Origin: a virus
Strand: one strand, 5' to 3'
Virus genome (UHGV): UHGV-0076294
Length of the DNA: 64,000 bases
Made by a program: the position numbers and the translations under genes. The notes beneath the pieces are model-generated. The model saw only the letters and a list, made by a program, of their open reading frames with translations, was not told the DNA's origin and ran no database searches. This document shows positions 3,813 to 44,789 of this stretch, one piece after another. Numbering within the stretch: the first letter of the stretch is position 1; each line of letters opens with the position of its first letter.

Positions 3813-3837
3813 AATTAAAAATACTCCGAGGTGAGCA

Positions 3838-4341
3838 ATGGGTTCATTTCTTAAAGTGCTTCCGTTCTTCATTCAGATGTTGATGGAAGCATTTAAACCA
3901 GGAGAAGGAGAGAACGTATCAAGAGCAAACAAGATAATGACTTTAATCATCACGGTCTTGTTATCCTACTCGGCTTTCGTCTCCTATGCGTACGTAGTGC
4001 AGTTTCACAAGCTCGTTACAGTACAATCGCATGATCAATACATGTCGCAATCTTACCAAGAGATGAAGCAAGATCGTGACAAACTGAAAGATGATAATGG
4101 TAGATTATACGACAAGCTCTTTATTTGCCTCGGCCAGAAACCGCCATATGAAAGCGGGTACAGCTCGGTAAAAGAAGACGTCTCTGCCAAAGATTTAACA
4201 CCTAAGAAACCAGAAACTCCTGTTAGCCCAGCTTCAACACCAGAACAACGCAAAGAAGCTTCGGCACGACCTGTTGGTAGTCAAGACGCTAACAGTTTCC
4301 GTCAGGAGATCATAAAGACGTTATCGTCACCTAAGGAGTAA
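3838..4341 (+). CDS. membrane-anchored coiled-coil protein (i-spanin-like topology, function unproven)
   Basis: 167 aa with strong SD GAGGTGA 4 nt upstream. One hydrophobic helix (IMTLIITVLLSYSAFVSYAYVV), then a charged helical segment and a Pro/Ser-rich tail. Confidence 0.75.
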   Translation: MGSFLKVLPFFIQMLMEAFKPGEGENVSRANKIMTLIITVLLSYSAFVSYAYVVQFHKLVTVQSHDQYMSQSYQEMKQDRDKLKDDNGRLYDKLFICLGQKPPYESGYSSVKEDVSAKDLTPKKPETPVSPASTPEQRKEASARPVGSQDANSFRQEIIKTLSSPKE

Positions 4342-4344
4342 CTG

Positions 4345-4800
4345 ATGAAATCGCTGTTATTCATCATGATTTTGTGCGTGGGTTTGGTGAGTAATAGCTA
4401 TGGAGAACCCGGTAAACGGTCATCCTATACTGCGTTACAGCCTCCGCCAGCGCCACCTATCATGTTAAATTGGAAAATTGATAAAGACGCGATGCGGGAA
4501 TATGTTGCGGATGTGAATACATACGCTTATTACGTTTATCTCTACACACGAAACTTAAATCAGCAAGCAGTCAAACGCGGGTGGAATCCACCGATGTTAG
4601 CACCTATCTGCGAACGGTTTGAAATTCCTAAATTACATTCCGTTCCAGAAAAGATGCTATTAGACGAGAAAGCGTTAACGCCACAAGAAATCAGTCGGGA
4701 TTTATCACGTAAACTGAATTCGTTGTTGTGGAATTATCGCTCTGACCGGCAAGCTTTATTAGACGCCTACGATCAGTATCTGACAACGTGTTTGAACTGA
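4345..4800 (+). CDS. secreted/periplasmic protein with N-terminal signal peptide
   Basis: 151 aa, SD AAGGAG. Signal-like MKSLLFIMILCVGLVSNSYG then EPGK...PPPAPP. Followed by a UUCG-loop terminator. Confidence 0.75.
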   Translation: MKSLLFIMILCVGLVSNSYGEPGKRSSYTALQPPPAPPIMLNWKIDKDAMREYVADVNTYAYYVYLYTRNLNQQAVKRGWNPPMLAPICERFEIPKLHSVPEKMLLDEKALTPQEISRDLSRKLNSLLWNYRSDRQALLDAYDQYLTTCLN

Positions 4801-4805
4801 CAACG

Positions 4806-4845
4806 CCTCCTGTATCCTTCGGGGTACAGGAGGTATTTTCTTTTT
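4806..4845 (+). terminator. rho-independent terminator with UUCG loop
   Basis: CCTCCTGTAtCC ttcg GGgTACAGGAGG, then TATTTTCTTTTT. Confidence 0.8.
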
Positions 4846-4887
4846 AACGTTTAACCCCCTTCTAATGTATAGAGAAAGGAGCTTAAC

Positions 4888-5622
4888 ATGACATACCCGA
4901 AAACGATTCAACCCACCTTACCGACGCTGGTAATTGGTGCTGACGCAGAAACCAAATCACTGCGTCCTGATGCGTATTTGTTAACCACAGGCTTAGTTGC
5001 CTTTGACGTACCGACTTTAAAAATGGTAGGGTCGTCGTATATGCGTATTGATCCTAACGACCCTAAAGCAAAAGCTGTGTTCCACGAAGACCCGCAAACC
5101 GTGGGGTGGTGGGAAGGTAAAGGAGAACCTGAATACGCGCCGTCTCGTGAAGCCTACACGGAAGCATGGGGTGGTACAACTCCTATGCCGGAAGCGCTGT
5201 GGGCAATGCGGAAGTGGTTAGACGAAATCACCGGCAAACACAATTTCGTTATTACCATGCGTGGGCCAGATTTCGATTCTCCGATTTTCATGAACGCGTT
5301 CGCACAATGTGACGTCCCTCCAGGTAAGTTCCGTAAGTTTAGTGCGTTAGACAGCGACCGCACCGCAGAGCGTTTAGCGCTGGCGTTTGGTTTTGAGCCT
5401 GACTTGACCGTTGAGCAAGTTTACTGGACGCGGGGTAAACCGGCATTTGAACACCATGCTTTGTGGGATGCCGCGAAAGAAGCGTACACCACCGCACGTA
5501 TTTATCACCTTGCACTGATTACCCGCGAGTATGGGTACGAACGTGCTAAAACCTGTCACGAAGAACTGAAAACCGGTGAGTATATTCCACCACAGATTCG
5601 TGATCAGTTAACCAGGGATTAA
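4888..5622 (+). CDS. DnaQ-like DEDDh 3'-5' exonuclease
   Basis: 244 aa. Exo I VIGADAET, Exo II GPDFDSPIF and Exo III HHALWDAAKEA give the DEDDh signature. Confidence 0.75.
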   Translation: MTYPKTIQPTLPTLVIGADAETKSLRPDAYLLTTGLVAFDVPTLKMVGSSYMRIDPNDPKAKAVFHEDPQTVGWWEGKGEPEYAPSREAYTEAWGGTTPMPEALWAMRKWLDEITGKHNFVITMRGPDFDSPIFMNAFAQCDVPPGKFRKFSALDSDRTAERLALAFGFEPDLTVEQVYWTRGKPAFEHHALWDAAKEAYTTARIYHLALITREYGYERAKTCHEELKTGEYIPPQIRDQLTRD

Positions 5623-5624
5623 GA

Positions 5625-7136
5625 ATGAAGAACGTTGATGTTGCTGTACTTTATACCGACGGTAGCCATTTAACCTCACCGATGGGAACAGGCGGTGGGA
5701 TTCACGGCTACCTGTTTAACAAGGAAGAGATTGTTGACGGTGGCGTTTATCGCCACCCTACCATTCCCGAAGGGATTACGACCTCTGGTTATCGTCAGAT
5801 TAACAAAGAGGAAAAACTTCCTGCGTTACCAGACTCTGTTGAGTTCGTAGACTGTGTTATTCCGGTACCGAAACACCACCACTCTGATGTTGCAGAGATT
5901 GTTGCTTTTTTAACCGTTTTCGAAAAAGCACCGTTCGTTGCAAAAAACTACGTTATCTATATCGACGCGTCTTACGTTGTGAATACGTTTAACGATTGGA
6001 TTGACGGTTGGGCTAAGCGGGACTGGCGACGGGCTGATGGAACCCCTATCGCGAACCTTGAACTGGTTCAACGGATGTGGGAAATTAAGAAACGTCTGAA
6101 GAGAGAAGGGAAAGGGATTCGTGTTCTTAAAATCAAAGGACACTCTGGTCACTACGGTAACGAACGGGCTGACGGGCTGGCACGAAAGGGATCATCCATC
6201 TCTGCGCACGGAGAAGGTTTAGATTATCAGGCGTACTGGTCAGCAGACGAAATCCCGGAAGAACAGCAGGAAGAAATCGTCAGTGAAGGCGTTAACGTTG
6301 CCGCGTTTCCTGATATTTGCGTAACTAAGTTCTGTTACCCGATGGTAAATGAGCAACACCCTACGGTTAAAGTAAACGGTGAAAATCTCTATTACATGTT
6401 CGGGGGTAACCACGCAAAACAGAAGGACGATATTGTCTTCGTCGGAAAATACATCCCTGATGCGCAGTTTTGTGTGATGTTTACACGTGAACCGTGGACG
6501 AACGTTTACGATTTGGTTAACGCCCACGCTGCTAAAGCCTGGGAGGGCGTACCACGTTTGCGTCAGTTTGACCCTATCGCTGTTGTGTTCAACCTGTTCG
6601 TAAAACGTAAGAAGTTTGCGGAAGCAGCGGCTAACGGTATCCCGGTTGACAAAATGCACTTTAGCGAAGACAAAAACCTGTGGATGTACGAAGACTTGTC
6701 TATCAGTCGTATTCTGCGTCCCGCGTTATTGTCATACCGCTGCGTAACCATTCGTGATGAACTGGCAGAGTGGCTGCGTGACTGTTTGGAAGGCAAATCG
6801 AACGTTGTCTTAAATGACATTACCGATTTGCTTTATGACGAAAAAGGTAAACCCACCAAAGACTTTTACCGAAACGTGGATAAAGGGTTTGACGTTTCCA
6901 TTAAAATTCCTAACGGGAAGGTTGACGTTAAAACTATTCTGACGCGTGCTATCGACATACCGACACGTACGGAAATCAACCGTATCAAAGAACCAAACGG
7001 GAGATTCTACATTGCCGTACGACGTCCAGAACGTCAGTATATTGAATATGCGTTAGTGTATATCGGTGAGAAGTATCATGGTCTGTGGTGTGGTTATTAT
7101 TCAAACAAACGAATATTGACCGATAAGGAACTTTGA
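5625..7136 (+). CDS. RNase HI domain protein with ~310-aa C-terminal extension of unknown function
   Basis: 503 aa. The first ~190 aa carry RNase HI blocks YTDGS, AEIVAF, IDASYV and HSGHYGNERADGLARKG. The rest has no motif I recognise. Confidence 0.85.
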   Translation: MKNVDVAVLYTDGSHLTSPMGTGGGIHGYLFNKEEIVDGGVYRHPTIPEGITTSGYRQINKEEKLPALPDSVEFVDCVIPVPKHHHSDVAEIVAFLTVFEKAPFVAKNYVIYIDASYVVNTFNDWIDGWAKRDWRRADGTPIANLELVQRMWEIKKRLKREGKGIRVLKIKGHSGHYGNERADGLARKGSSISAHGEGLDYQAYWSADEIPEEQQEEIVSEGVNVAAFPDICVTKFCYPMVNEQHPTVKVNGENLYYMFGGNHAKQKDDIVFVGKYIPDAQFCVMFTREPWTNVYDLVNAHAAKAWEGVPRLRQFDPIAVVFNLFVKRKKFAEAAANGIPVDKMHFSEDKNLWMYEDLSISRILRPALLSYRCVTIRDELAEWLRDCLEGKSNVVLNDITDLLYDEKGKPTKDFYRNVDKGFDVSIKIPNGKVDVKTILTRAIDIPTRTEINRIKEPNGRFYIAVRRPERQYIEYALVYIGEKYHGLWCGYYSNKRILTDKEL

Positions 7137-7804
7137 TGCTGATTGTTTTTAGTCAAGCGTTATCGATGGCACCGAGTTATATCCAGATACGCTTTTCAGC
7201 AATTGCGCGTCAGCAGTGGGGCTTTAAAGCCCCCTATTCTGACGACCACTATACACTCGGTGAAGTAGCACTTGAACTTGCTTTACGTTCATTGTGGGAA
7301 ATCATTGCATTGTACAATGCAGGTTGTGATATACCGAAAGATTGTTTCCCACAGCGGGTGATTGCACAAGGCACTACGAACACTTACGGTAATCCGGCAT
7401 TGGTGGAAGAGTGCTTAGGCTACGCTAACCAGTCTGGGGAACTGCAACATAACTTTAATCTGGTGATTAACAAAGTCTGGAGTGAGCTGGAAAGCTACCC
7501 TGAAAAGATTATCTGGTTTGATCGTAACCAATTCGTTAAGGAGGTGGCCAGTAAACGACCCGTACGTTTAGTTGCCTTAAAGCCCACCGACCTTGATTTG
7601 AAACAAACCTATCCCTTCCCAGAGGAAATTCGACTTTCTCCAGAAACCGTAGGTCACACTATTTTCAAACAAGGTGACGCCTGGATACTTCCTCACGATC
7701 TAGACCGTTTCCTGCTCAACTCCGATCAGATTCACTCCGGCTATGATTCTCTCGTAAAAGAGTTTCACATCGATCCCTATTTCGCTAAAAACTTTCTTAG
7801 ATAG
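7136..7804 (+). CDS. hypothetical protein
   Basis: 222 aa from an ATG overlapping the upstream stop (TGATG). The track start at 7133 is TTG. Confidence 0.7.
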   Translation: MLIVFSQALSMAPSYIQIRFSAIARQQWGFKAPYSDDHYTLGEVALELALRSLWEIIALYNAGCDIPKDCFPQRVIAQGTTNTYGNPALVEECLGYANQSGELQHNFNLVINKVWSELESYPEKIIWFDRNQFVKEVASKRPVRLVALKPTDLDLKQTYPFPEEIRLSPETVGHTIFKQGDAWILPHDLDRFLLNSDQIHSGYDSLVKEFHIDPYFAKNFLR

Positions 7805-7821
7805 ATATTATTCAGGTGTAG
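7800..7821 (+). promoter_or_regulatory. promoter-like motif, copy 1: GATAGATATTATTCAGGTGTAG
   Basis: Shares GAYAGATATTAT + N4-6 + GTG(A/T)AG with three other sites. Lies 20 nt upstream of ATG 7842. Confidence 0.4.
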
Positions 7822-7841
7822 AACCCTCGGAGTTAATCACC

Positions 7842-8579
7842 ATGTTGAAAGTTTATGTCCCTCAATTACAACGTATTAATCCCTCGTTGTTCGAGGGATT
7901 CTTTTATAAAATTTGGCCACAATACTTCAATGAACACCTGAAAGACTCAAAATGGTCATCTGTCCAAGGAGAATTCTTTTACACCGCACAATCAGCCTGT
8001 ACAAATGTCTTTACCCACCTCATCTCTGAGGTTATTGACGCTGTCAACACCAACCGAAACTTTGACCTTCGTGACGTCATAATAGATCTCTCAGCGATCT
8101 TCGATAACTACGATTGCGATGACGCAGTATTCGAACATTTCTCCTCTGAAGATGTGTGGGAGGCCGTTTATCAATGGCTAGAATACTACGTGAATTTTCT
8201 ACTTTCCTCGAACATGTTAGAAAATTACAATAAAGCACTCTTTCCCATTTATAACGACTTAATGAACGTTAAACTGACAAAGAATCTCGTTGGTTTTTGG
8301 TATTCGACCTACGACGCTGAAAGCAGGTTGTGGGAAAAAGAAATGATCGCTTACGGCATCGAGCGCGGCGATTATGATGAATTATATCGATGTTATTGGC
8401 CATTCAATCATTACGAAAAAGGGTGTCAAGGCGATCCGTATTTGTGGTCTTTTTATTTCTGTAATCAGACTGGTGTTATTTATCTTGAAGACACCGGTGT
8501 ACGAATCCCTAACGGTACTGATGTAACATACTGCCAATTACGTAAAGACCGGGCTGACGCCATTTATCAGGATTATTAA
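7842..8579 (+). CDS. hypothetical protein
   Basis: 245-aa ORF, SD CGGAG upstream, co-oriented operon. Confidence 0.75.
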   Translation: MLKVYVPQLQRINPSLFEGFFYKIWPQYFNEHLKDSKWSSVQGEFFYTAQSACTNVFTHLISEVIDAVNTNRNFDLRDVIIDLSAIFDNYDCDDAVFEHFSSEDVWEAVYQWLEYYVNFLLSSNMLENYNKALFPIYNDLMNVKLTKNLVGFWYSTYDAESRLWEKEMIAYGIERGDYDELYRCYWPFNHYEKGCQGDPYLWSFYFCNQTGVIYLEDTGVRIPNGTDVTYCQLRKDRADAIYQDY

Positions 8580-8580
8580 C

Positions 8581-9123
8581 ATGAAATTACTTATCGATTT
8601 TTCTCTGAGTTCGTCACGCGACAGGCTAAATAAAATACTTACTGAAATGCGAAGTAAAGTGACGTTAGAATTGCACGATGCGATAGCGGTATACGAGAGA
8701 AAGCTAACGAAAGAGAACAACGGGGAGACCGTGGTGATCTTAGACGCTAAAGCGATGGTGGATTTTCTGGTAGACGTTTTAGAAAGACGGATACACGCAG
8801 TGATAGAACGACCCTACCTGGTTCGTGTGACCGACCCAGACACTACGGTAGATTCGATACTGGAAAAAGCATTCGTTGACGCAGCACACTATTTACAAAA
8901 TCATTCCCCAGACGATTTCGAAACGATTTACGTTGGTGTTATACAGCAACAGAATGCTGAAACCAACATAGTCGATACTGTGTGCTGGAGCGATATTCTT
9001 ACTAATGAAACCATGTCTCGCATTCGAGATATCTTTATTGAAAATTTGGCATTAGTAAAAAGGGTGTGTAGTTCCGAGATTATTTATTTATCATCGAAAT
9101 ACGAAAAACCTAAAGGGGTATAA
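8581..9123 (+). CDS. hypothetical protein
   Basis: 180-aa ORF starting 1 nt after the upstream stop. Confidence 0.75.
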   Translation: MKLLIDFSLSSSRDRLNKILTEMRSKVTLELHDAIAVYERKLTKENNGETVVILDAKAMVDFLVDVLERRIHAVIERPYLVRVTDPDTTVDSILEKAFVDAAHYLQNHSPDDFETIYVGVIQQQNAETNIVDTVCWSDILTNETMSRIRDIFIENLALVKRVCSSEIIYLSSKYEKPKGV

Positions 9124-9125
9124 CC

Positions 9126-9650
9126 ATGGATATTTTAATTCAGCTTCGTAAGAAAACAACCATTGCCACGCCGATAGCGTTAGAGGAGAAAATCTCTGGC
9201 GCGGTTGCACGCAAGCTCTGTGGTGCTCACGGCTTTAGCAGTCATCAGGAACAGGTCGTTACTGCCGCCACATTACACAACTTACGGCACACAGTACATT
9301 ACTGTTTAGCTGACAACGTCACCATCACTCTTGATGATGGCGCAGCAGCCGACCAACTGCGTCGTGAAATTGACCACAAGATCGGCGTTTATAAAAGACG
9401 TTTTGATCGTGCCTGTGCACGTTTAACCGATGACAAGGAATTATGGAAACGTTTGAAACTTGAAATTGAGTATGCGGCGCAGCGTTACGGGATTGGCGGT
9501 ACCGAACCGTTGCTGTCCGAACAAGAAATCATGTTAGCAATCGAAGTTTACATCACCGTTTGTATCGCCATCCTGAAAGAAACCGACTACGAAATTACAA
9601 AAGCGTTGTTAAACACCGCAGACAGACTCACCCCAATTTTAGGACAGTAA
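9126..9650 (+). CDS. hypothetical protein
   Basis: 174-aa ORF, SD AAAGGGG upstream, 2-nt spacer. Confidence 0.75.
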   Translation: MDILIQLRKKTTIATPIALEEKISGAVARKLCGAHGFSSHQEQVVTAATLHNLRHTVHYCLADNVTITLDDGAAADQLRREIDHKIGVYKRRFDRACARLTDDKELWKRLKLEIEYAAQRYGIGGTEPLLSEQEIMLAIEVYITVCIAILKETDYEITKALLNTADRLTPILGQ

Positions 9651-9651
9651 A

Positions 9652-10137
9652 ATGAACTTAAATGCAATTATCAATCTCTCTAATAGCGACATTGTCCACG
9701 AGTTTCTGAACCACTGCGATCGCACAGAACAGTCTATCCGTAACATGTTAGCTCCGAAAACAGTGGATGCCATTTGGATAGCTTCACAGGCAGCGGGCGT
9801 TATCGTTGCAAGATATCGCGCGACATTACTAATGAGTCTGGACATTTTCTTCGATCGACCAGGGCCTATTACATGGACTTCTATCGGACGTCGGCTTTAT
9901 GACATACGTATCGAAACCCTACGCTCGATAATTAATGGCTGGCACAACGGGTATATGCCTGACGTAATAGTACCCTACACTGTTCCCGAATGGCGACGCT
10001 TTTATAGTCAGATTTGGAGTAATGAAAGCGTTTATCATGAAATAGTGGCTCTTATCAGTGCTGACCAAAGCCAACTTGCATACCAGCTATGGGAGTGGCT
10101 AAAAGCTAATTATCCTGATTACGTCAAAATCGACTAA
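9652..10137 (+). CDS. hypothetical protein
   Basis: 161-aa ORF with a 1-nt spacer; followed by a terminator at 10143. Confidence 0.75.
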   Translation: MNLNAIINLSNSDIVHEFLNHCDRTEQSIRNMLAPKTVDAIWIASQAAGVIVARYRATLLMSLDIFFDRPGPITWTSIGRRLYDIRIETLRSIINGWHNGYMPDVIVPYTVPEWRRFYSQIWSNESVYHEIVALISADQSQLAYQLWEWLKANYPDYVKID

Positions 10138-10142
10138 TAGAC

Positions 10143-10174
10143 ACCCTAGCTTCGGCTAGGGTTACTTTATTTTT
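10143..10174 (+). terminator. rho-independent terminator with UUCG loop
   Basis: ACCCTAGC ttcg GCTAGGGT, then TACTTTATTTTT. Confidence 0.75.
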
Positions 10175-10196
10175 AACCATTTTAGGAGAATATACC

Positions 10197-11129
10197 ATGT
10201 ATTTGTACAAAAGTAAAAAAGTAAAAGGTATTAAAGACTGCCTTAGACAAATGGGGAGTCAGCATCTAGAAAATGTCATGGAAGAAAATCAAACAAAAGA
10301 AAATCCTGTCTCGAAATGGATAAAAAAGAATCGTAATCATCTAACCAATAGCTTTATACCGTATAATGAAGATTTAGGTCTCAAAGATCCACGTTCCCTT
10401 CACGCTCAAACATTGGCAATTGGATGGCTATACGGCGGGGCTTCCTTAATATCCGATCGAGCACTTAGAGAACTTGTTTTTGAGACTGAGATGCCCAGTA
10501 AATTCCCTGAAGAATGGTTGGACTTTATACCTACTTGGACTGTGGCAATCGATGTAGGTAAAGAGGATGAGACTTTCTTTCTCGGTTATCGAAAAAATGG
10601 GAAGAGAAGGTTTATTATAATTGCTACAAATACTGATTACGGGTTAACAGAAGGCGTTACCACGATTGCCACTTGTTCGTTAGAGCTTCGTAGTGCAGGA
10701 AACGGACTTGTGGAAATCGACTATGCCGACGGTGTGGAGAACGAACAAGAAAAGATGCTATGGTTATCTCTGGCCAAAGCCGCCACATCGATGATATTTC
10801 TGTGTACGCTAATCCCACCTAATCTCAAAACGTCTTACAATGACGTTAAGTTCAAAGAAATCAAAAAGAACGGCAGTATTAGCTACGAAGTCAAACCTCG
10901 TGAACGTGATGTTAAAGTGGATATCACACCAGGACAAGTAAAATATCTAAAAGGATTTAACACCGACTTGAAAGCCATGCAGGGTATCAAACACGCTAAA
11001 GCTGCGCACATTCGTCGTGCCCACTGGCGTAGATACTGGGTTGGTCCAAGAAACGGTGAAAGAAAAAGAAAACTTTGCTGGATTCCACCGACATTTGTTC
11101 GCGGCTACGTACCCCACACGCAAGACTAG
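10197..11129 (+). CDS. hypothetical protein (tandem paralog B1) with basic C-terminal motif AAHIRRAHWRRYWVGP...CWIPPTFVRGY
   Basis: 310 aa, SD TAGGAG. Blocks LGWLYGGASLISDRALRELV and the C-terminal 40 aa align with the next ORF. Confidence 0.85.
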   Translation: MYLYKSKKVKGIKDCLRQMGSQHLENVMEENQTKENPVSKWIKKNRNHLTNSFIPYNEDLGLKDPRSLHAQTLAIGWLYGGASLISDRALRELVFETEMPSKFPEEWLDFIPTWTVAIDVGKEDETFFLGYRKNGKRRFIIIATNTDYGLTEGVTTIATCSLELRSAGNGLVEIDYADGVENEQEKMLWLSLAKAATSMIFLCTLIPPNLKTSYNDVKFKEIKKNGSISYEVKPRERDVKVDITPGQVKYLKGFNTDLKAMQGIKHAKAAHIRRAHWRRYWVGPRNGERKRKLCWIPPTFVRGYVPHTQD

Positions 11130-13246: not shown

Positions 13247-14743
13247 ATGGCAGGCCCAACTAAGCAAGTTATCGGTGAAGTAATTCGTCCTCGTTTTAAC
13301 GTTTATACCATCATGGACCACGCCTTAGGCAACTACGAAAGAGGCGAAGATGGTTTATACTACCTTAACGGTGGTTTTGCCCACATCATGGGTTTCGCGG
13401 GTCGTGGTAACACCTTCAAATCCACACTGTTGGATTTCTGTATCTTCCAAATCCTACAACGCTATAAAGCAGAGTGGGGTTCGAAATACGATACCGAAGT
13501 GTCTGCTGCCCTCGATCGCTTAGAGACCGGTTATATTTCTGCCATGCACGCCAACGGTATTGACGATGGAACTTCGGTACTGGAACTTATTCACGAAGGT
13601 CGTTATAACCTCGTTGGTTCTGACGTGATGCCAGGGGAACAATATTACAGTGACTATATTCGTGATGAAGTGGAAAAACGCTTCAAGCAGTATATGTCTG
13701 GTAAAACGCGTGTAACGCCGTTCCTCGACCCGGTTCGTCGTAAGCAAAAAGAAATCCTTGACCCGTGGCTGTATTCTATCGACTCCCTGTCGGAGTGGCA
13801 CTCGTCTTCTCTGGAAGACAAGCACGCTAAAACGGATATCGGTGATTCCGATCAGAACATCCTCAACGCCCACGACGCCTTACAGAAATCGAACATGATG
13901 AGCCGTTGGCCGTCTGCGTTTGCCCGTGGTGGTTTCTACATGGGCTTTGTTGCACAGATGGCCGATGACTCCGGTAAGGCGATGGCAGGCGGTCGTCAAG
14001 GACAGAAAGCAAATGCGAAACTGCTGGACGATGCGAACGACGATCTCAAATTCGCAGGGATTCCTCGTCGTCAGTTAAGCTTCCTGACTAACTCGTTTAT
14101 TGTTGCGACAAAATCAGGCGAGCTGAAAAAAGACCAGAGTTATAACGCCCAGACCGGTGTTAACGAAGAACTTTACCCAACCGCACGTTCAAAAGCCATG
14201 AACGCGTCGGTTAACGACCTGAAAGTTATCACCTTTACGCAGTACCGTGCTAAAGGCGGTCACACAGGCGTGAAGTTCCAGATGATCTTCTCGCAAGAGA
14301 TGGGTCTACTGTATCACCTGAGCCTGTGGCACTACCTGAGTGATACCCTGAAAAAATCCGAATTTGGATTTACATCCAGCGGTAGCGGTGGTTCCATTAA
14401 AGAACTCCAGATTCTGCCTGGTGTTAAATTCCAGCGTACGACGATTCGCGACATGATCGACGATAACCCGAAACTGCGTCGGGCATTAGAAATCACGGCC
14501 GCGATTGCGTACATGCAGAACAACTACCATCGTTTAGAGGTTAAATACCACCTCACGATGGAAGAAATCTACAAACTCATTGATGAAAAATGGGATTGGA
14601 ATGAGATTCTGGAGAACACCGTAGAATACTGGATGTTTAAAGACCAAGAAACGAAAGGTGGTAAACGTACGTTAACTGCCCGTACGATTCTGGGTATGGC
14701 CGTGGACGGCCTGGAACCGAAGTTCCTCACCAAAAAGAAATAA
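13247..14743 (+). CDS. UvsX/RecA-like recombination ATPase
   Basis: 498 aa. Walker A GFAGRGNTFKST resembles T4 UvsX LAGPSKSFKSN. Walker B LYSIDSLSEW resembles UvsX VFIDSLGNL. Confidence 0.65.
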   Translation: MAGPTKQVIGEVIRPRFNVYTIMDHALGNYERGEDGLYYLNGGFAHIMGFAGRGNTFKSTLLDFCIFQILQRYKAEWGSKYDTEVSAALDRLETGYISAMHANGIDDGTSVLELIHEGRYNLVGSDVMPGEQYYSDYIRDEVEKRFKQYMSGKTRVTPFLDPVRRKQKEILDPWLYSIDSLSEWHSSSLEDKHAKTDIGDSDQNILNAHDALQKSNMMSRWPSAFARGGFYMGFVAQMADDSGKAMAGGRQGQKANAKLLDDANDDLKFAGIPRRQLSFLTNSFIVATKSGELKKDQSYNAQTGVNEELYPTARSKAMNASVNDLKVITFTQYRAKGGHTGVKFQMIFSQEMGLLYHLSLWHYLSDTLKKSEFGFTSSGSGGSIKELQILPGVKFQRTTIRDMIDDNPKLRRALEITAAIAYMQNNYHRLEVKYHLTMEEIYKLIDEKWDWNEILENTVEYWMFKDQETKGGKRTLTARTILGMAVDGLEPKFLTKKK

Positions 14744-14749
14744 AGTCGT

Positions 14750-14774
14750 TAGGGTAGGGTAATCCCCTACCCTA
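14750..14774 (+). other. intergenic hairpin without U-tract (TAGGGTAGGG taatc CCCTACCCTA)
   Basis: 10-bp stem between the UvsX-like gene and the next SD. Confidence 0.5.
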
Positions 14775-14788
14775 GCTAAGGAGTCGTT

Positions 14789-15088
14789 ATGCGTTATCAA
14801 ACGGAGATTGTGGAGCGCTTAAGCGAAGGTTTAGCCAGCGTCAGTCTGGAAACAGCAGCGGCATTTCGTGAGACTTTCGCTACTTTCTTTCCCGATCGTG
14901 AATCTTTTTGTTTAAAGGTCGGTGAATATTATTCCAAGTTACTCGAACACTACGGTTACCCGCCGGTGAAATTCGACGTACCTGAAAACACCGACGACAT
15001 CAGTTATTGGATTGAAACCCTCGAAGCAGGGACACTTTCCAACTTGCGTAAGGCGGTAGAAAATGAGACTCGATCCAGCGCGGCGTAA
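14789..15088 (+). CDS. hypothetical protein
   Basis: 99-aa ORF, SD TAAGGAG; its 3' end overlaps the next gene by 26 nt. Confidence 0.7.
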   Translation: MRYQTEIVERLSEGLASVSLETAAAFRETFATFFPDRESFCLKVGEYYSKLLEHYGYPPVKFDVPENTDDISYWIETLEAGTLSNLRKAVENETRSSAA

Positions 15089-15731
15089 AAAAGCAGAAGC
15101 TTACGCCTTACAAATCTTAAACCTGGTTGACCCCTCTGGGATTAATGCAGAGGCAGCAAAGAAAGCTTTTGCTCGAATGACAGACGAACAGTTTAATCGT
15201 CTTCGTGAAGGGCTACCGATTTACAACCCGGTTGGCAGCAAAGTTAAAATAGACCACATGCGAAACGTTGAGCTATGTCGTGTTTTAGGTTTGAACCTGG
15301 AACAGCGGTTGTGGTTAACTGAGCCGAAAACGGGTGTTTTCCATCGTACCCGCTACCCACATCTGGTATTGCGCTTGCCTGCGCGTCGTCAAACGCAGAT
15401 GCAAGAAAAGAAAATGGCAGTAGCGAAGAACGACAAAGTTCGTGATAAACTCTCCGGTCAAGTTGTTGGTCCTTCTAAAGCATCTGGTGTATCTTTCCCA
15501 GAAGCGTACATCATGTACTCCGATGGTCACGACTGGACACTGAAAGAGTTTCTGTGGGCGCGTGGGGGTAACGAAGCTTTACAACGTGCGTTCTATCAAT
15601 CGTTACGTCAAACCGGTAAGGGACGTATTGACCTGCCGGGAGCAGAACGTACCAGTTCGAAAGCAACACGTACCTGGTCTGCGTATCTGAAAGCGATGCA
15701 CATTGGTAACAACATAGGCCATCCGTCATGA
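15063..15731 (+). CDS. RNA polymerase beta-subunit C-terminal module (split rpoB-like fragment)
   Basis: 222 aa. MTDEQFNRLREGLPIYNPV, RLWLTEPKTGVFHRTRYPHLVLRL, NDKVRDKLSG, SFPEAYIMYSDGHDWTLKEFL and SAYLKAMHIGNNI align by eye with E. coli RpoB ~1150-1342 ([91 protein letters not shown]). Confidence 0.65.
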   Translation: MRLDPARRKKAEAYALQILNLVDPSGINAEAAKKAFARMTDEQFNRLREGLPIYNPVGSKVKIDHMRNVELCRVLGLNLEQRLWLTEPKTGVFHRTRYPHLVLRLPARRQTQMQEKKMAVAKNDKVRDKLSGQVVGPSKASGVSFPEAYIMYSDGHDWTLKEFLWARGGNEALQRAFYQSLRQTGKGRIDLPGAERTSSKATRTWSAYLKAMHIGNNIGHPS

Positions 15732-16450
15732 GATTTTCTCGACGTTTTTTGATTGATATCGATGCGTTGTTTGACACCCGAATCGGTTGGGTCAAAGCCA
15801 TCAAACCTGAAAGATTGGAAATTATGGATTACGACGTTTATCGTCGTCGTTTTACGGAGGAATGGGCGACTGTCTTGGGGTTTGAGAATTGGAAAGAGGA
15901 ATATCAGAAACGTGATAAACGCGCGTTAATGAATGCGGAACCCACCGAACTGTTGTTGACGATGAAGAACGAGTTCGAATGTATGTTACTCGAAATCGAG
16001 ATGCATTCGCCTATCGAAAAACCGACGCTGACAATTAACACCTGGCCGTATACTGATCTTACTGACCAAGAAATGCAAACGTTCTTGCAGATGTTCCGTA
16101 TCTATTACGATATGGTGCAGGTTGAGTTAGTGTCGTGGCCGCATTCGGAACTTACGCCGGGTCGTTTAGCGACAGCTTGGGATTGTTGGATAATGTACGA
16201 TTGGTTCGCTTGGATTGAACTCAATGCGAAACATCTGAAAAAGCCTATCCCTAGCTTTACCATTACGCACCCTGCCCTGCTAACGCCGGAACTTACAAAA
16301 GAGACGGTAGAGCAGCTTAAACGCGATGGTGTGAATCCGTTCAAGGAACACATCCGGTTTATGGCAGAGTGGGTCGGTGTCGACCCACGTGATTCTGCGC
16401 TATTTAGTCTGGCTCGTCCGAAGAAGGACGCGCAAACGCCGCAGTCATAA
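15728..16450 (+). CDS. hypothetical protein
   Basis: 240-aa ORF with an ATGA start/stop overlap with the upstream gene. Confidence 0.75.
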   Translation: MRFSRRFLIDIDALFDTRIGWVKAIKPERLEIMDYDVYRRRFTEEWATVLGFENWKEEYQKRDKRALMNAEPTELLLTMKNEFECMLLEIEMHSPIEKPTLTINTWPYTDLTDQEMQTFLQMFRIYYDMVQVELVSWPHSELTPGRLATAWDCWIMYDWFAWIELNAKHLKKPIPSFTITHPALLTPELTKETVEQLKRDGVNPFKEHIRFMAEWVGVDPRDSALFSLARPKKDAQTPQS

Positions 16451-36449: not shown

Positions 36450-38075
36450 GTGAATAAACTTAATTGGGTTGACTTTTATCTGCTCAATGTAAACAAGTCT
36501 CTTGTGTCGCGATTACGACCCGTCACGACCACAGATACTTTTCAAGGGTTGACAAAAAACTTTCACCCTGAAGGGTTGTACTCCACGGAGATTTTCGGTC
36601 TTACGGGAAGTGAAGCCCGAGACTCAACGTTTTCTTACATTGATATTAAATTAGATATCATTTCGCCGACGGTGTGTTTGGCGTTATTCCAACTAAAACA
36701 ACTCTACGAAGAAATTTGTTCTGGAAAACGCTACGCAACCTGGAACGAAAAAGAAAAAGATTTTGAACCGGCTTTGCCTGGCGACGCTGGCGCAGATACC
36801 GGTTTTAACTTTTTCCTTAGTCACTACAACGACTTAAAACCCGGACGTAACGAATCGTTACAACGTGACGAAACGGTGGATTTCTTCGAGAAGTTCCGTC
36901 CCGTGAGTCTTAGCCGCTATGTTCTCGTATTACCCGCGGGTTTACGTGATTTGGTGGTTAGACAAGACGGTAGGGAACAGGAAGAGGAAATCGGTGGGTT
37001 ATATCGTCGTTTGATTTCTTTGGCCAGGGCGATTCCTGACCGTGCTACACGGGTTGAATTAACGAACCCTGTGCGATGGAAACTCCAACAAACCTTTAAC
37101 GAAATCTGGATGTACTTCTTTAACATCCAGGACGGTAAAGGAGGTTTCCAACGTCGTAAAGTGACGTCGCGTAAACTGATGAACGGGACACGTAACGTAT
37201 TGTCCTCATTCTCCACAGGCTCTAAATGCATGGGGCGTGAGGATGCGATTCGACCGACCGACACCAAAATTGGTTTGTATCAGGGTCTGAAAGCGTTGCT
37301 ACCTGTTGCGCAATACCAGATACGTGAACGTTACCTCGGTAACATTCGTGCTGGCGATGGCAACCTTTATGGCGTAAACACCAAAACGCTTAAACGCGAG
37401 TTCTTGGAGGTTGGGGGTCGTGTTTACGACACCTTTACCACAGACGACGGTATCGAAACATTAATTAACCGGATGGAAGCTCGCGAGCTTCGTCATCAAC
37501 CGTTAATGATTAACGATACCCATTACGTCGCACTGGTCTACCAAGACAACAAACATTTTAAGGTGTTCTACGATATCGATGAACTGCCTAAAACGTTTGA
37601 CCGTAAAAACGTCCACGGAATGACCCTGGTAGAATTACTCTACTTATCGGGTTACGAACTGTGGAACAACTATTTCGGTTTCGTTACGCGTTATCCCGTC
37701 ACCGGTCGAGGCTCGACGTACTCATCGACCATAAGATTGGAGACCACCACGTCATCTTTATACCTAAAAGAACTGGAAGATGACTGGGAGACTGAAAAGC
37801 CACACGGAGCTATCAGTTATCCTGACAGGTCGGTTCCAACCTTTGTTGAGTCGATGGCACCGCACCCGTCACGATTGGGTGGCTTAGGGGGTGACTACGA
37901 TGGTGACACCGGTTCACTTAACGCGCCTATGTCGCAAGAAGCACTCGAGGAAAACCGTAACTGGATACACTCGAAGAACTACTGGTTCGATTCTGACGGG
38001 AATTTCAAAATCAATCCTGTCAACAACGTGATTAAACGTGCGACGCAAGCGTTATTAAAGAATCCAAAAGGCTAA
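36450..38075 (+). CDS. multisubunit RNA polymerase beta' subunit, N-terminal fragment (phiKZ gp180-like)
   Basis: 541 aa, GTG start with SD AGGAG 7 nt upstream. VLVLPAGLRDLV, VTRYPVTGRGS and GGDYDGDTGSLNAPMSQEALEE align with RpoC VLPPDLRP, NRAPTLHRLG and [22 protein letters not shown]. Confidence 0.85.
   Translation: MNKLNWVDFYLLNVNKSLVSRLRPVTTTDTFQGLTKNFHPEGLYSTEIFGLTGSEARDSTFSYIDIKLDIISPTVCLALFQLKQLYEEICSGKRYATWNEKEKDFEPALPGDAGADTGFNFFLSHYNDLKPGRNESLQRDETVDFFEKFRPVSLSRYVLVLPAGLRDLVVRQDGREQEEEIGGLYRRLISLARAIPDRATRVELTNPVRWKLQQTFNEIWMYFFNIQDGKGGFQRRKVTSRKLMNGTRNVLSSFSTGSKCMGREDAIRPTDTKIGLYQGLKALLPVAQYQIRERYLGNIRAGDGNLYGVNTKTLKREFLEVGGRVYDTFTTDDGIETLINRMEARELRHQPLMINDTHYVALVYQDNKHFKVFYDIDELPKTFDRKNVHGMTLVELLYLSGYELWNNYFGFVTRYPVTGRGSTYSSTIRLETTTSSLYLKELEDDWETEKPHGAISYPDRSVPTFVESMAPHPSRLGGLGGDYDGDTGSLNAPMSQEALEENRNWIHSKNYWFDSDGNFKINPVNNVIKRATQALLKNPKG
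37893..37907 (+). other. catalytic metal-binding loop DYDGD of the beta'-like subunit
   Basis: Codons GAC TAC GAT GGT GAC, residues 482-486. Confidence 0.8.
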
Positions 38076-38078
38076 TCA

Positions 38079-41000
38079 ATGCTGCTCATTAAACAGTTTA
38101 ACCAACGCTTCTCTGTGCGTAAAACAGACGAGTTTGGTAATCCGAGGATTATCCCGCTCGAGAAGCTCCAGATACCACGAGGCTCTATACTGCACGTCGT
38201 GGATCTCGATCAGGTGGTCTTAGCGCCACCTGCTACGCTGGAAATCATCCAGCCGTTGGAAAAACCTGCACAAATTCGCCACCACTTTAAACTTCCCGAA
38301 GAAGGGATCAGTGGGCATCCACGTAACAAACCTGTGCAGGGGCAAGAACGTGCTATCTTTGCGTACCATCGCGCTAACCGTCCAATTCGTCGCCTGACTT
38401 CAGACGACCTGATTCGTAAAGACTTAAAAGTTCTCCTTATCGAGAACTACACACCGATGTTATCGCATTACTACTATCCAGACACTCAGTTAGCCTGGTA
38501 CGATAGACTGCGTAACATCCAGCTGTTAATGACTAACCAGTTCAAATACGACACGCAAGAATACATGCGTCAAAACTACTTCGTGATTGAGCTGGGGTCA
38601 ACGTTACCGTCTTTCCAGAAGTTCCAAACGACGTATAACGATCGTGTTAAAAGCAAGATTGAAAAGTTCCAGGACTTTAACCTGTTGTGGTTATTGGAAC
38701 TGTTCGCTTGGGCATACGGTAAACAGTCCGATTCTCTGTTTGCAGGAATGGACTTAACGCAACTGTCTCGAATGAACTTCATCTTCACCCACAACAGCGG
38801 CTTTACGTCGATGAACATGGGTGTCGTGGAGAAGATGCGTAAATCGTCCGGTGGTCGTTTAAGTGACGATCAAATGGCCAGGATGTTCTATCGTACGTTA
38901 GTGCGTGTAATGACACAAGCACCGTCTAATGCGTACGAAGCTGAATTCCTGACACCGGAAGGTGATGAACGTATCTTTGTTAAGGACATCGAAGAGGATA
39001 CCGTTGACGTCGTTGACGATACAGACGTTGTTAACGACGCTGTGGTTGAATCGGATAACGCTTTCGATGAAAAAGAAGACCTCGTTATTGAGGAGCCGAA
39101 AGAAGACGTTAAGCCGACGACTATCGTTATCGAAAAAACGATTGCTCACGATGACATTATCAAACAGGAAGCGCAGAAACTGGCTGAGGCGGGCCGCTTA
39201 AGCTCCAAAGCGTATCAGTTCCTGTCTGATTCGACCAAACGTTTCGTTCAGTTACCAAACCCGTACAACCCGAAAGAGACTTACGGCGAAGCATTAACCA
39301 TTCACGAAAAAGACATTGCCGTGAAAGCGGAACCGAAGAAAGTCCAGCGACTGGTTACGGATGAAGGTTGGGCAGAAAACGTCACCGACCAAATGGTGAA
39401 ACAATACAACCAGACCATGATGAGTAAAGACGTGCTGGCAGCAGTCGCCAGCTCGCAGCGTCTTGGTTTGGCTATTCACAACCACACGATCGAGAAAGAG
39501 ATTTCCGTTACGGGAACTATCGAACACCACACCCTGCGAGTTCAACCGATTGGTGGTGAACCGACGACAGTGCGTTTCTCTATCCCTGGTTTAACCGAAG
39601 ACGGTACCTGGGTAGCAAACGGTGTTGAATACACCATGCGTCGTCAGCGTGTAGACGTGCCGATTCGTAAGGTCGCCCCAGACACCGTAGCGTTAACTAC
39701 CGCTTACGGTAAAAACTTCGTACGTCGTAGTGACAAAGTCGCAAACGACTACGGCCGTTGGTTAACGAACGCGATTATCACGCGTGCCGTAGACCCGACC
39801 AACACGGAGATCACAGACGCACGACTCGCGAACGTTTTCGATCCTACTGAGAAACTTCCTCGTCAGTACACGGAGATTGCACGTCGTATCGCCAGCTTCA
39901 ATGCAGGCGGGTATATGTGGAACTTCGATTATAAAGAAGCGGTTAACTTCTTTAATGACGAACAACTTACTGACGCAAATAACGTTGAGATGTTGCCGGT
40001 TGCGAAACGTCCGCGCAGTGAAGTTATTGTGGTGATGGATACCAAGTCCATGCTCTATACCGTTAAAGGTAAAGAGTGTACACCACTGGGTACCATCTTG
40101 GAAGTGCTTGGTTTCAGTAGCCAGAAAGCGCCAAGAGAAATGACTGAGCTTTCACTGATGGGCAAATCGCTCTCACTGGGCTTCATCTTCTCGTTCTATT
40201 TAGGTCTGCAAGGGATGCTTAAACATTTCGGCATTCAGTACGAAATCGTCCCTGTTGGCCAACGTGTAGATAAGAGCACGTACGATTCTATTATTCGTCT
40301 CCAGGACAGTAAGTTCCTGGTAACGTGTGATAACGATCAGCAACGAATGATTCTACACGGTCTGGATAAGTACCTGAAACACCTGGTGGCTTATACCGAG
40401 TCCGAAGTCGACCGCGAAGACATTTACCTGAACTTAATACGTGATGCAGATGGGCTAACCCCACGCTACATCAACGAGCTGAAACAAATGCGGGCCGCGT
40501 TTGTTGATGACATGCACGCACGTATCCTCAGGAAAATGGGTGAACCGGAAACCTTTATCGGGCTATTGGAACGTTCTAACGAACTGTTACAAACCGACCA
40601 CTCTTTACCGGAGATTAACGGTGATGAGATGATGTTCTTAGGGAACCAACGTATTTCCTACCACATCTACACTGCGATGGTCAGGGCGATGCGTAACTAC
40701 AACAACGCACCGAACAGTAACCGTAAGTTCGAGCTTACTCAGGACATGATTTGGGGCGCAATTAACTCCGACCCGTCTGTTCTGTTAGCGCCGGGTGCTA
40801 ACCCTATCCAGTCGATTAAAGAGAAAGACGTTATCACCATGGGGGGTACGGGCGGCCGTAACCGTAAAACAATGGTTTATCACACGCGTGAGTTCCAACC
40901 GAGTGACCTGGGTATTGTTTCCGGTAACACGGTGGATAACGGTGATGTAGGTATTACTGCTTTCGCCACTAACAACCCACGTTTCGATACCGTTGACGGC

Positions 41001-42245
41001 ACAACCTATAAACGGGATGAAAAGAAACTGAAACCGAGCGACACTCTGTCATTTATTGACGGTCTCGTGCCGGATACCCTGATGGATGACGCTAAACGTC
41101 AAAACTTCGTTGGGATTCAGTTAGGTTCTGCCACCAGTTGCAACGGCGCTACCACTACCCCTTATCGTACCGAACAGGAGAAATTTGTCGCTCACCGTAC
41201 GTCGGTGAAACACGCACGCGTTATTGATAAAGCAGGTAAAATCACCGGTCTGTCTAAAGACCATATCGAAATTACGTACGAAGATGGAAGTAAAGAAGCC
41301 TTTCCTCTAGGGCGCTGGTTCGGCCCCCACGAAGGTACCTTCTATCCGCACACCCTGGTGACTCGCTGGAAAGCCGGTGACAAACTCCCGGCCGGGGCAG
41401 TCATCACTTATAACGAGCAACACTTTGAACCCGATATCTACGACCCTACTCAGGTTTCCTGGAAAAACGGGGTGCTGGCTACCGTCGCTTTAATCGAGGC
41501 TGAAGAAGTAATCGAAGACTCCAATGCTATTTCTGAACGGTTCGCGAAGAAAATGGTTGGGCAGGTTACTAAGCTGAAAGAAGTGGTGATTAACAGCAAC
41601 CAGATGCTCCTGGAAATCGTTAACGAAGGGGAACACGTTGACGTCGACACAATCCTATGCACATTTACTGACGACCTTACGGGGGATATGAGTACCTTTA
41701 GTAAGGAAGCAGCACAAACGTTGCAAAGTTTAAGTTCGTACGCACCTCGTGCTGGGGTTCGTGGTATCGTGGATAAAATCGAAGTCGTGTATCACGGTGA
41801 AACCGAAGACATGACGCCTTCACTGGCAGAACTGGTACGCAAATACGATCGTATTCGTCGTAAAGCAGCGTTGGCTGTTAATCGTGGCGATCCGGTATCA
41901 GGGAGTGTTAATGGGGATTACCGTGTAGAGGGTGTACCGTTAGCCTTTAACTCGCTTTGTGTTCGATTCTTTATTACGCACGAAGTTGAAATGGCCGCAG
42001 CGGATAAGATGGTTATTGCTAACCAGCTGAAAACCACTGTACAAGAAGTGATGTACGGGGAAAACAAAACAGAAGATGGCGACGACATTGACATTTTGTT
42101 CGGTCGTGATTCTGTCGACGCACGTATTGTAGGTTCTATCCAACGAATCGGTACCGCAAATGCTGTGGGTGAACAAGCAGGGATTCTTATCGGTCGTATT
42201 CTCGACGGCGAGTCCGTGCCTGAGTTACCAGCGACACTTAAATAA
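38079..42245 (+). CDS. multisubunit RNA polymerase beta subunit, large N-terminal fragment (phiKZ gp178-like)
   Basis: 1388 aa. HTREFQPSDLGIVSGNTVDNGDVGITAFA (cf. HYGR.CPIETPEGPNIGLI), AADKMVIANQLKTTV (cf. GDKMAGRHGNKGVIS) and DIDILFGRDSVDARIVGSI (cf. VDIVLNPLGVPSRMNIGQI). Ends where the 15063 module begins in the RpoB alignment. Confidence 0.75.
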   Translation: MLLIKQFNQRFSVRKTDEFGNPRIIPLEKLQIPRGSILHVVDLDQVVLAPPATLEIIQPLEKPAQIRHHFKLPEEGISGHPRNKPVQGQERAIFAYHRANRPIRRLTSDDLIRKDLKVLLIENYTPMLSHYYYPDTQLAWYDRLRNIQLLMTNQFKYDTQEYMRQNYFVIELGSTLPSFQKFQTTYNDRVKSKIEKFQDFNLLWLLELFAWAYGKQSDSLFAGMDLTQLSRMNFIFTHNSGFTSMNMGVVEKMRKSSGGRLSDDQMARMFYRTLVRVMTQAPSNAYEAEFLTPEGDERIFVKDIEEDTVDVVDDTDVVNDAVVESDNAFDEKEDLVIEEPKEDVKPTTIVIEKTIAHDDIIKQEAQKLAEAGRLSSKAYQFLSDSTKRFVQLPNPYNPKETYGEALTIHEKDIAVKAEPKKVQRLVTDEGWAENVTDQMVKQYNQTMMSKDVLAAVASSQRLGLAIHNHTIEKEISVTGTIEHHTLRVQPIGGEPTTVRFSIPGLTEDGTWVANGVEYTMRRQRVDVPIRKVAPDTVALTTAYGKNFVRRSDKVANDYGRWLTNAIITRAVDPTNTEITDARLANVFDPTEKLPRQYTEIARRIASFNAGGYMWNFDYKEAVNFFNDEQLTDANNVEMLPVAKRPRSEVIVVMDTKSMLYTVKGKECTPLGTILEVLGFSSQKAPREMTELSLMGKSLSLGFIFSFYLGLQGMLKHFGIQYEIVPVGQRVDKSTYDSIIRLQDSKFLVTCDNDQQRMILHGLDKYLKHLVAYTESEVDREDIYLNLIRDADGLTPRYINELKQMRAAFVDDMHARILRKMGEPETFIGLLERSNELLQTDHSLPEINGDEMMFLGNQRISYHIYTAMVRAMRNYNNAPNSNRKFELTQDMIWGAINSDPSVLLAPGANPIQSIKEKDVITMGGTGGRNRKTMVYHTREFQPSDLGIVSGNTVDNGDVGITAFATNNPRFDTVDGTTYKRDEKKLKPSDTLSFIDGLVPDTLMDDAKRQNFVGIQLGSATSCNGATTTPYRTEQEKFVAHRTSVKHARVIDKAGKITGLSKDHIEITYEDGSKEAFPLGRWFGPHEGTFYPHTLVTRWKAGDKLPAGAVITYNEQHFEPDIYDPTQVSWKNGVLATVALIEAEEVIEDSNAISERFAKKMVGQVTKLKEVVINSNQMLLEIVNEGEHVDVDTILCTFTDDLTGDMSTFSKEAAQTLQSLSSYAPRAGVRGIVDKIEVVYHGETEDMTPSLAELVRKYDRIRRKAALAVNRGDPVSGSVNGDYRVEGVPLAFNSLCVRFFITHEVEMAAADKMVIANQLKTTVQEVMYGENKTEDGDDIDILFGRDSVDARIVGSIQRIGTANAVGEQAGILIGRILDGESVPELPATLK

Positions 42246-44043: not shown

Positions 44044-44060
44044 TGCAATAGGAGGTGATC

Positions 44061-44789
44061 GTGAGTGCGATTGAAACAGCCCGTCGTGATCCCACTAAGA
44101 TTCATGCGGACTTGGTAAATAACGGCACGGTCACCACTACCAAAGGGGGATGTTACATTTACATCCCCGTTGGGTTTGTGGCGAAAGAGTTGGCGGTTAT
44201 TTCTTCTACGGTAACGATTGTAGGTATTTTTGCTATCTCAACGGACCGTAAAACTTACGGGGTTTCCAGTGTCACTACACTGATTGAGATTACCCCAACG
44301 GCGTTTGAAGAGATTGACGTCTTTGGCGTCCCTTATTACGAATTTCGTTTTGACCCCGGCACAGTGGTTTTCCCCAACTGCAATTTACAGGTGTTATCCG
44401 CACCGATATACAACATTGCGTCGTATATTTACGACTTTGGTAACCGTCCTTTCTGGTTTACCGCTTACGACGATGCTGAACTATTAGCACCGGATAAGGT
44501 AAAGCGATGGAACGGTTTTACTGTATTTGCCGATCAGATTACCGCTGACGTTTATGCTGCACACACGCAGCGTAAAGTGGGTGATCCAAAAACGTTTTTC
44601 CGTTACACCTTGAAAAAAGACAGTGACTTAAACAACCCTGTCCAATTCATCCCACTACGTAGTGGGTCTCTTAACAAAACGTCGAGACTGGCGAAGCTTG
44701 CAGACGTAGAACTGAAACGTGGTATTCGTTCTGCACTACAAGTTGACCCAGTACGTGCCGAACCGCTCGAAGATTTGTTTATGAGGTAA
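44061..44789 (+). CDS. hypothetical protein, possible head/virion protein (position-based)
   Basis: GTG 44061 lies 5 nt after SD GGAGG; the track start GTG 44055 overlaps the SD itself. 242 aa. Confidence 0.7.
   Translation: MSAIETARRDPTKIHADLVNNGTVTTTKGGCYIYIPVGFVAKELAVISSTVTIVGIFAISTDRKTYGVSSVTTLIEITPTAFEEIDVFGVPYYEFRFDPGTVVFPNCNLQVLSAPIYNIASYIYDFGNRPFWFTAYDDAELLAPDKVKRWNGFTVFADQITADVYAAHTQRKVGDPKTFFRYTLKKDSDLNNPVQFIPLRSGSLNKTSRLAKLADVELKRGIRSALQVDPVRAEPLEDLFMR

Follow-up and report, generated by a model that had tools for sequence, protein, structure and literature searches.

The window analysed here is the whole 64,000-nucleotide (nt) stretch of the viral genome UHGV-0076294, and the gene in question lies at 15063-15731 on its plus strand. 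The open reading frame (ORF) starts with ATG and encodes a protein of 222 amino acids (aa), which the ORF list places exactly where the first-pass annotation had it. It falls into the family PHROG 3233, "RNA polymerase beta subunit" (E 3.1e-93, residues 5-220 on positions 2-224 of a 225-position profile), and this full-length family membership is matched by its identity to gp218 of phage SPN3US and gp149 of phage phiKZ. It is a real conserved gene and not a chance ORF: tblastn finds one full-length copy per record in 302 sequenced jumbo phages, and a profile run against 1.84 billion representative proteins brings up 825 relatives (counted as representative clusters at 50% identity). The short minus-strand ORFs within 15063-15731 gain no support. 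With high confidence, the protein is the separately encoded C-terminal piece of the β subunit (β-C) of a head-packaged virion RNA polymerase (vRNAP) of the phiKZ/SPN3US type. In close relatives vRNAP β-C is already known from genetics, proteomics and microscopy on SPN3US and phiKZ, and a separate β C-terminal protein of vRNAPs has been described (Iyer et al., 2021, PMC7824862).

The source of the window is a jumbo phage of the SPN3US/Asesino/phiEaH2 group (Chimalliviridae). Its DNA is about 75% identical to that of the Erwinia phages Asesino, phiEaH2 and pEa_SNUABM_8 and of Salmonella phage SPN3US, and no near-identical record was found in a search of the phage collection. The SPN3US orthologue, gp218 (SPN3US_0218), also has 222 aa and is 85.5% identical over its full length. 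It is listed as "beta C", with the same length, among the proteins present in SPN3US heads (PMC5105663). In the amber mutant 241(am11), which affects the N-terminal piece of β (β-N), gp218 is lost along with gp240, gp42 and gp244 (PMC5105663). The first-pass annotation had named phiKZ gp149 as a protein to compare; this 224-aa product, annotated as a "structural head protein", can be aligned with the window protein from end to end at 36% identity, the sequence being much more diverged than that of gp218. gp149 co-immunoprecipitates with gp180, gp178 and gp80 (PMC10612078), and a gp149-sfCherry2 fusion is both packaged and injected together with the DNA (bioRxiv 10.1101/2024.03.24.586471). Because the orthologues are head-associated, lost without β-N, co-immunoprecipitated with vRNAP subunits and injected, the window protein is assigned to the virion enzyme.

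The relation to cellular polymerases was examined with an alignment of 139 family members, drawn from the profile-search relatives, and one of 81 proteobacterial RpoB C-termini, compared by hhalign. This profile-profile comparison, which the first-pass annotation had proposed, gives 94.6% probability (E 7e-8) and places residues 7-184 of β-C on residues 1133-1311 of Escherichia coli β; with the same query, a reversed RpoB profile as control reaches 0.5% (E 0.11). Each half of the module finds its own counterpart, residues 1-80 alone matching E. coli β 1131-1202 (E 2e-5) and residues 81-184 alone matching 1255-1308 (E 3e-4). The invariant family motifs RRQTQ, K117, TGQ-G-S and RGGN fall on the most conserved blocks of RpoB. 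When a full-length AlphaFold2 (AF2) model is compared by Foldseek with 350,542 chains of the Protein Data Bank (PDB), 48 of the 50 best matches are bacterial RNA polymerase (RNAP) β subunits and the other 2 are the β-like chain of the non-virion RNAP (nvRNAP) of phage AR9. Profile and fold comparisons thus agree on the C-terminal domains of cellular RpoB/Rpb2. The first-pass annotation, which had given an alignment with RpoB residues ~1150-1342, was therefore roughly right, with a start nearer 1133 and a match that reaches 1311; the last ~38 residues, which it had included, have no significant match by themselves.

The corresponding part of E. coli RpoB (1133-1342) comprises the insert β-i11 and the shared regions b15-b16, and the conserved blocks occur in the same order in β-C. 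The differences are that β-C is a separate polypeptide, that identity is only ~18%, that Pfam does not see it, and that E. coli H1237 corresponds to an invariant Gln in the phage family. We take the RpoB C-terminal region to be covered in Pfam by the C-terminal part of RNA_pol_Rpb2_6 together with Rpb2_7. In cellular RNAPs this region of β lines the hybrid-binding site, and its end packs against the N-terminal clamp of β'. A comparable structural role would be expected of β-C, by analogy with the cellular enzymes.

These comparisons also bear on which of the two phage polymerases the protein serves. The first-pass annotation had left this undecided, proposing a partner either of the virion β-N or of a second, non-virion polymerase. 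The virion alternative is favoured by the gp218 and gp149 data, these orthologues being virion proteins that depend on, or co-purify with, vRNAP subunits. The alternative would make the 222-aa protein the β C-terminal piece of the middle/late nvRNAP, the type of enzyme to which the two AR9 chains among the Foldseek matches belong (chain C, PDB 7S00). In the β-like C-terminal half of such enzymes (in phiKZ gp71-73) this region follows the catalytic barrel without a break, and Iyer et al. (2021, PMC7824862) describe the barrel and the extension of nvRNAP β as a single chain. phiKZ gp73 covers everything from the equivalent of E. coli ~1085 to the end, so that an nvRNAP needs no separate β-C, whereas the window protein lacks the barrel and starts at ~1133. 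The β-C family profile has no significant similarity to gp71 or gp73 by hmmsearch or hhalign (E 0.18-0.46), tblastn finds a single β-C place per phage genome, and the 64-kb window contains no nvRNAP gene. Membership of the non-virion enzyme is thus extremely unlikely.

If the protein is the β-C of the vRNAP, it should continue the chain where β-N stops. The β-N gene (SPN3US gp241/phiKZ gp178 type) lies at 38079..42245 on the plus strand and encodes 1388 aa, matching PHROG 3148 over its full length (E 0). By hhalign, β-N residues 1241-1350 fall on E. coli β 1010-1107. Within this segment the two-lysine motif ADKMVIANQLKT (residues 1308-1319) aligns to GDKMAGRHGNKG, which bears two active-site lysines, and EDGDDIDILFGRDSVDARI aligns to EDGTPVDIVLNPLGVPSRM; the sequence DARI at 1347-1350 is the equivalent of the PSRM motif. 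β-N ends 38 residues beyond this motif, which itself lies at ~1107 of E. coli β, and β-C begins at the equivalent of 1133. The two proteins are therefore collinear with cellular β and do not overlap. The first-pass annotation had supposed that the 222-aa protein starts about where the 1388-aa protein ends, the two together making one complete β, and this arrangement is borne out by a fused form.

The fusion, P0105, is a metagenomic relative of 1685 aa in which a β-N-like part and the β-C module share one ORF (L085:354-5411, on a contig of 6967 bp). Residues 390-1451 of P0105 (~1060 aa) are 28% identical to the window β-N, and the β-C module (1466-1685) starts within ~7 residues of the end of the β-N-like part. 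With P0105 as the master sequence, hhalign produces one uninterrupted alignment across the junction onto RpoB 1010-1311 (96.6%, E 5.7e-10). The gene downstream of P0105 is phrog_3841 (gp177-like), the same family as the gene after the window β-N. This fusion is seen in a single 7-kb Logan contig, where an assembly chimera is possible, and a search for related loci with its junction returned only a stand-alone β-C. In each of the 39 relatives that carry N-terminal extensions (39/39) the module closes the protein, followed by no more than 0-6 residues, as expected for the end of β.

The site of the split can be described more closely. Residues 7-50 of β-C (window 15081-15212) align to E. coli β 1133-1180, inside the insert β-i11 (1122-1180), and D41, invariant in the family, is aligned with D1166; this insert has two conserved salt-bridge residues, of which D1166 is one. 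The occurrence of β-i11 is limited to Proteobacteria, Acidobacteria and Aquificae (PMC2939025). The signal is moderate: hhalign with residues 1-60 of β-C gives E 8e-5 against 0.36 for the reversed control, and Foldseek with a model of the N-terminal part, itself of good quality, is not significant. From the PSRM motif to the G-x-P-x-x-x-P motif there are 88 residues in the phage (38 + 50), 72 in E. coli and ~18 in Thermus, where 5 residues replace the 59-residue β-i11. Given these spacings, β-N and β-C are split at the margin of a surface element that tolerates insertions, namely the N-terminal edge of the β-i11 equivalent, the end of the 1388-aa protein corresponding to window positions 42129-42245.

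Two further vRNAP genes accompany β-N, giving three partner genes in the window. The β'-N gene (SPN3US gp240/phiKZ gp180 type; 36450..38075, plus strand) encodes 541 aa that match PHROG 2986 (E 1.9e-235) and are 32.6% identical to phiKZ gp180, residues 482-486 forming the catalytic DYDGD motif. A candidate β'-C gene (SPN3US gp244/phiKZ gp176 type; 44055..44789, plus strand) encodes 244 aa that match PHROG 2926 (E 3.3e-90) and are 29% identical to phiKZ gp176 over its full length; the β'-C role was assigned to SPN3US gp244 (PMC5105663). The SPN3US genes gp240, gp241 and gp244 thus have their equivalents at 36450, 38079 and 44055. Pfam has no match at E<=1 for the 1388- and 541-aa proteins, and likewise none for the 486- and 244-aa neighbours. 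That curated models miss them in spite of the DYDGD and two-lysine motifs indicates that these polymerases have diverged far from the RNAPs on which the models are built. A 2377-aa ORF of the phiKZ gp181 type (29287-36420, minus strand), with a tail-fibre-like N-terminal part and a transglycosylase domain near 1986-2246, is transcribed divergently from the vRNAP gene cluster.

Several observations weigh against the assignment to the vRNAP β-C. Pfam finds nothing for the 222-aa protein at E<=10, and HMMER searches of the PDB sequences, by phmmer with the single sequence and with a 27-sequence profile, return no match at E<=10; the same searches reveal no structure of a vRNAP β-C. Since no curated model recognises β-C, the link to cellular β is carried by moderate profile-profile and fold comparisons. 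Neither residues 175-222 nor residues 185-222 alone have a significant hhalign match in RpoB, which leaves the last ~38 residues unalignable. The full-length AF2 model is poor (predicted local distance difference test score, pLDDT, 62), its Foldseek E-values are weak (best 1.5e-3, template modelling score, TM, 0.24), and the good N-terminal model, as described above, has no significant match. The alignment of β-N to RpoB is weak by itself (40% probability); the β-N profile is shallow because a word-index search with the β-N C-terminus returned 7 proteins. A gene for β'-M (gp42/gp80 type) was not found within the 64-kb window. Finally, virion location, dependence on β-N, co-purification and injection were demonstrated in the orthologues, and would hold for this phage by virtue of orthology.

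A rival reading makes the product a protein of the head or of ejection that accompanies the vRNAP, perhaps as an adaptor for packaging or ejection, and whose resemblance to β is vestigial, so that it forms no functional part of the enzyme. In its favour, many records label β-C homologues with no more than "virion structural protein", a Gln stands throughout the family where E. coli has H1237, and elsewhere the module is joined to unrelated enzymes (SNF2, HD/DUF5662, GNAT, SET), a pattern that would fit a module for targeting or docking. Against this stand the collinearity of the module with β and its fusion to β-N in P0105, as well as the position of the invariant motifs RRQTQ, K117, TGQ-G-S and RGGN on the most conserved RpoB blocks. 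Moreover, a vRNAP without β-C would miss all of β past the barrel, which is kept in every cellular and nvRNAP β, and docking and structural roles are not mutually exclusive. A passenger protein of this kind is therefore very unlikely, and the reading of the 222-aa protein as the β-C subunit of the vRNAP is retained.

The β-C gene stands apart from its partners: the distance to the β-N gene, which lies downstream of it, is 22.3 kb from end to start and 23.0 kb from start to start, in agreement with the 23 kb of the first-pass annotation. In phiKZ, gp178 (β-N) is likewise ~27 kb from gp149, so the separation of 22-23 kb is an old and conserved feature of the family. The surroundings had been described as a metabolism/recombination cluster, and the β-C gene is indeed adjoined by a UvsX-like recombinase gene (13247-14743, phrog_97) and by genes without assigned function. 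Directly upstream lies a 99-aa ORF (14789..15088, plus strand; PHROG 6181, E 1.5e-18), the end of which overlaps the β-C start by 26 nt. Downstream, a 240-aa ORF (15728..16450, plus strand; PHROG 3328, E 3.2e-81), homologous to phiKZ gp147 (by tblastn) and SPN3US gp219, overlaps the β-C stop by 4 nt (ATGA). Because of these overlaps the three ORFs look co-transcribed and translationally coupled, for the 99-aa ORF probably so.

SPN3US, phiKZ and Aeromonas phage pAEv1810 share the block consisting of the UvsX-like gene, the small ORF, β-C and the gp147-like gene, and synteny around the single β-C copy also holds in pEa_SNUABM_8. SPN3US has the same neighbourhood (UvsX-like gp216, small gp217, gp218, gp219), including the arrangement of small ORF and β-C (gp217/gp218), but the DNA of the region is ~75% identical and the upstream overlap is 4 nt there as against 26 nt here. 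In phiKZ, gp152, gp149 and gp147 are syntenic with the genes at 13247, 15063 and 15728; it differs in having gp148 between gp149 and gp147, and gp179 between gp180 and gp178. A scan for sigma-70 promoters and intrinsic terminators around the β-C gene gave fewer sites than shuffled sequence, and Rfam and tRNA scans of the whole 64-kb window found nothing. Between the UvsX-like gene and the ORF that follows it, a gap of 45 nt contains a perfect 10-bp G+C-rich hairpin (14750-14776, TAGGGTAGGG / CCCTACCCTA, 5-nt loop) that is not followed by a T-run and is absent from the list of the generic terminator scan. This hairpin could be a signal for processing, stability or termination by a phage RNAP.

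In uncultivated jumbo phages the β-C module also occurs as part of larger proteins. Among the best 150 of the 825 relatives, with domains assigned by Pfam, 39 have N-terminal extensions, which contain DUF5662 (17), SNF2 with Helicase_C (10), HD (5), GNAT (3), SET (2) or an intein (1). The fused proteins have 350-2608 aa, always with the β-C module last, and the SNF2 helicase often occurs alongside DUF5662/HD, GNAT or SET. Of the 34 members of one β-C clade, 31 are fused, compared with none of the 35 in the clade of the window protein. Examples come from loci L086-L091, L096, L097/L098 and L111 (ORFs 2849-10675, 5864-10663 and 5510-10663; proteins including P0084, P0123, P0061, P0157 and P0073). 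The fusions recur, P0084 in two European Nucleotide Archive (ENA) assemblies and P0061 in contigs from both ENA and the Joint Genome Institute (JGI), and jumbo contigs of 278-361 kb in IMG/VR contain fusion ORFs of 1599, 1717 and 2608 aa. In one of these (L097/L098, IMGVR_UViG_3300045988_163688, 361 kb) a 20-kb locus with the 1599-aa SNF2::β-C ORF occurs twice, at 15.7-36.4 kb (reversed) and at 324.7-345.3 kb, as would result from inverted duplication of a large segment or from faulty assembly. A search of viral contigs with P0073 confirmed no relative, and tblastn of the neighbour genes on the fusion contigs gave no match to the window or to the phiKZ regions covered.

An HD::β-C fusion was reported in Bacillus phages, and a helicase partner of phage RNAP was predicted from gene neighbourhoods (Iyer et al., 2021, PMC7824862). 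In these HD-phosphohydrolase::β-C proteins of Bacillus jumbo phages the same module ends a larger protein, whereas in the window it stands alone. The C-terminal part of PHROG 23439, "hydrolase", likewise matches residues 6-46 of the window protein. The helicase part of the fusions has a stand-alone orthologue in 302 sequenced phage records, a number equal to that of β-C; the two are never fused in those records, and in pAEv1810 they lie 4 kb apart. The phiKZ helicase gp75 was considered as the SNF2 partner and rejected, as it has no BLASTP match to the fusion proteins. No paper linking SNF2 with the vRNAP of these phages was found in a literature search. The window itself encodes a stand-alone HD-domain protein of 223 aa (48167-48838, plus strand; PHROG 3921), annotated as a phosphohydrolase in relatives. 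The PHROG 3921 domain is present inside several β-C fusions, immediately preceding the module in P0084, P0123 and P0119, which suggests that the stand-alone protein works with the vRNAP. It is conceivable, though we would not count it as probable, that the free N-terminus of the detached β-C has served in evolution as a docking point through which enzymes are built into the injected polymerase and delivered together with it, and is not a mere leftover of gene splitting. If so, the stand-alone SNF2 helicase and the HD protein (48167-48838) of SPN3US-type phages would be non-covalent partners of the vRNAP.

Phages of this group have a bacterial-type two-barrel RNAP, divided among several polypeptides, that is carried inside the head, and the 222-aa protein is taken as its β-C subunit. 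It would supply the part of β past the catalytic double-psi β-barrel: a small helical segment (~E. coli 1133-1180), the conserved block (~1181-1311) and, probably, the last ~30 residues up to ~1342. As judged from the orthologues, its gene would be expressed with the middle/late genes, and the product may assemble in the cytoplasm with β-N (1388 aa), β'-N (541 aa) and β'-C (244 aa), together with a β'-M presumably encoded outside the window. The complex would then enter the prohead in a β-N-dependent manner, at ~10 copies per virion if the orthologues are a guide. Ejected with the DNA, the vRNAP would go on to transcribe the early genes.

For the window, the outcome is a correct annotation only. 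For the family, β-C brings the known pieces of the injected polymerase to five; with this polymerase, these phages can begin transcribing independently of the host enzyme. The β-N::β-C fusion of P0105 offers a ready design for expressing a single-chain β, and the fusions with SNF2, HD, GNAT and SET domains nominate candidate vRNAP-associated factors. The β-i11 match bears on the disputed origin of jumbo-phage polymerases: if this homology is real, it would argue for descent of the phage β from a bacterial β that already carried β-i11, and not from a pre-cellular ancestor.

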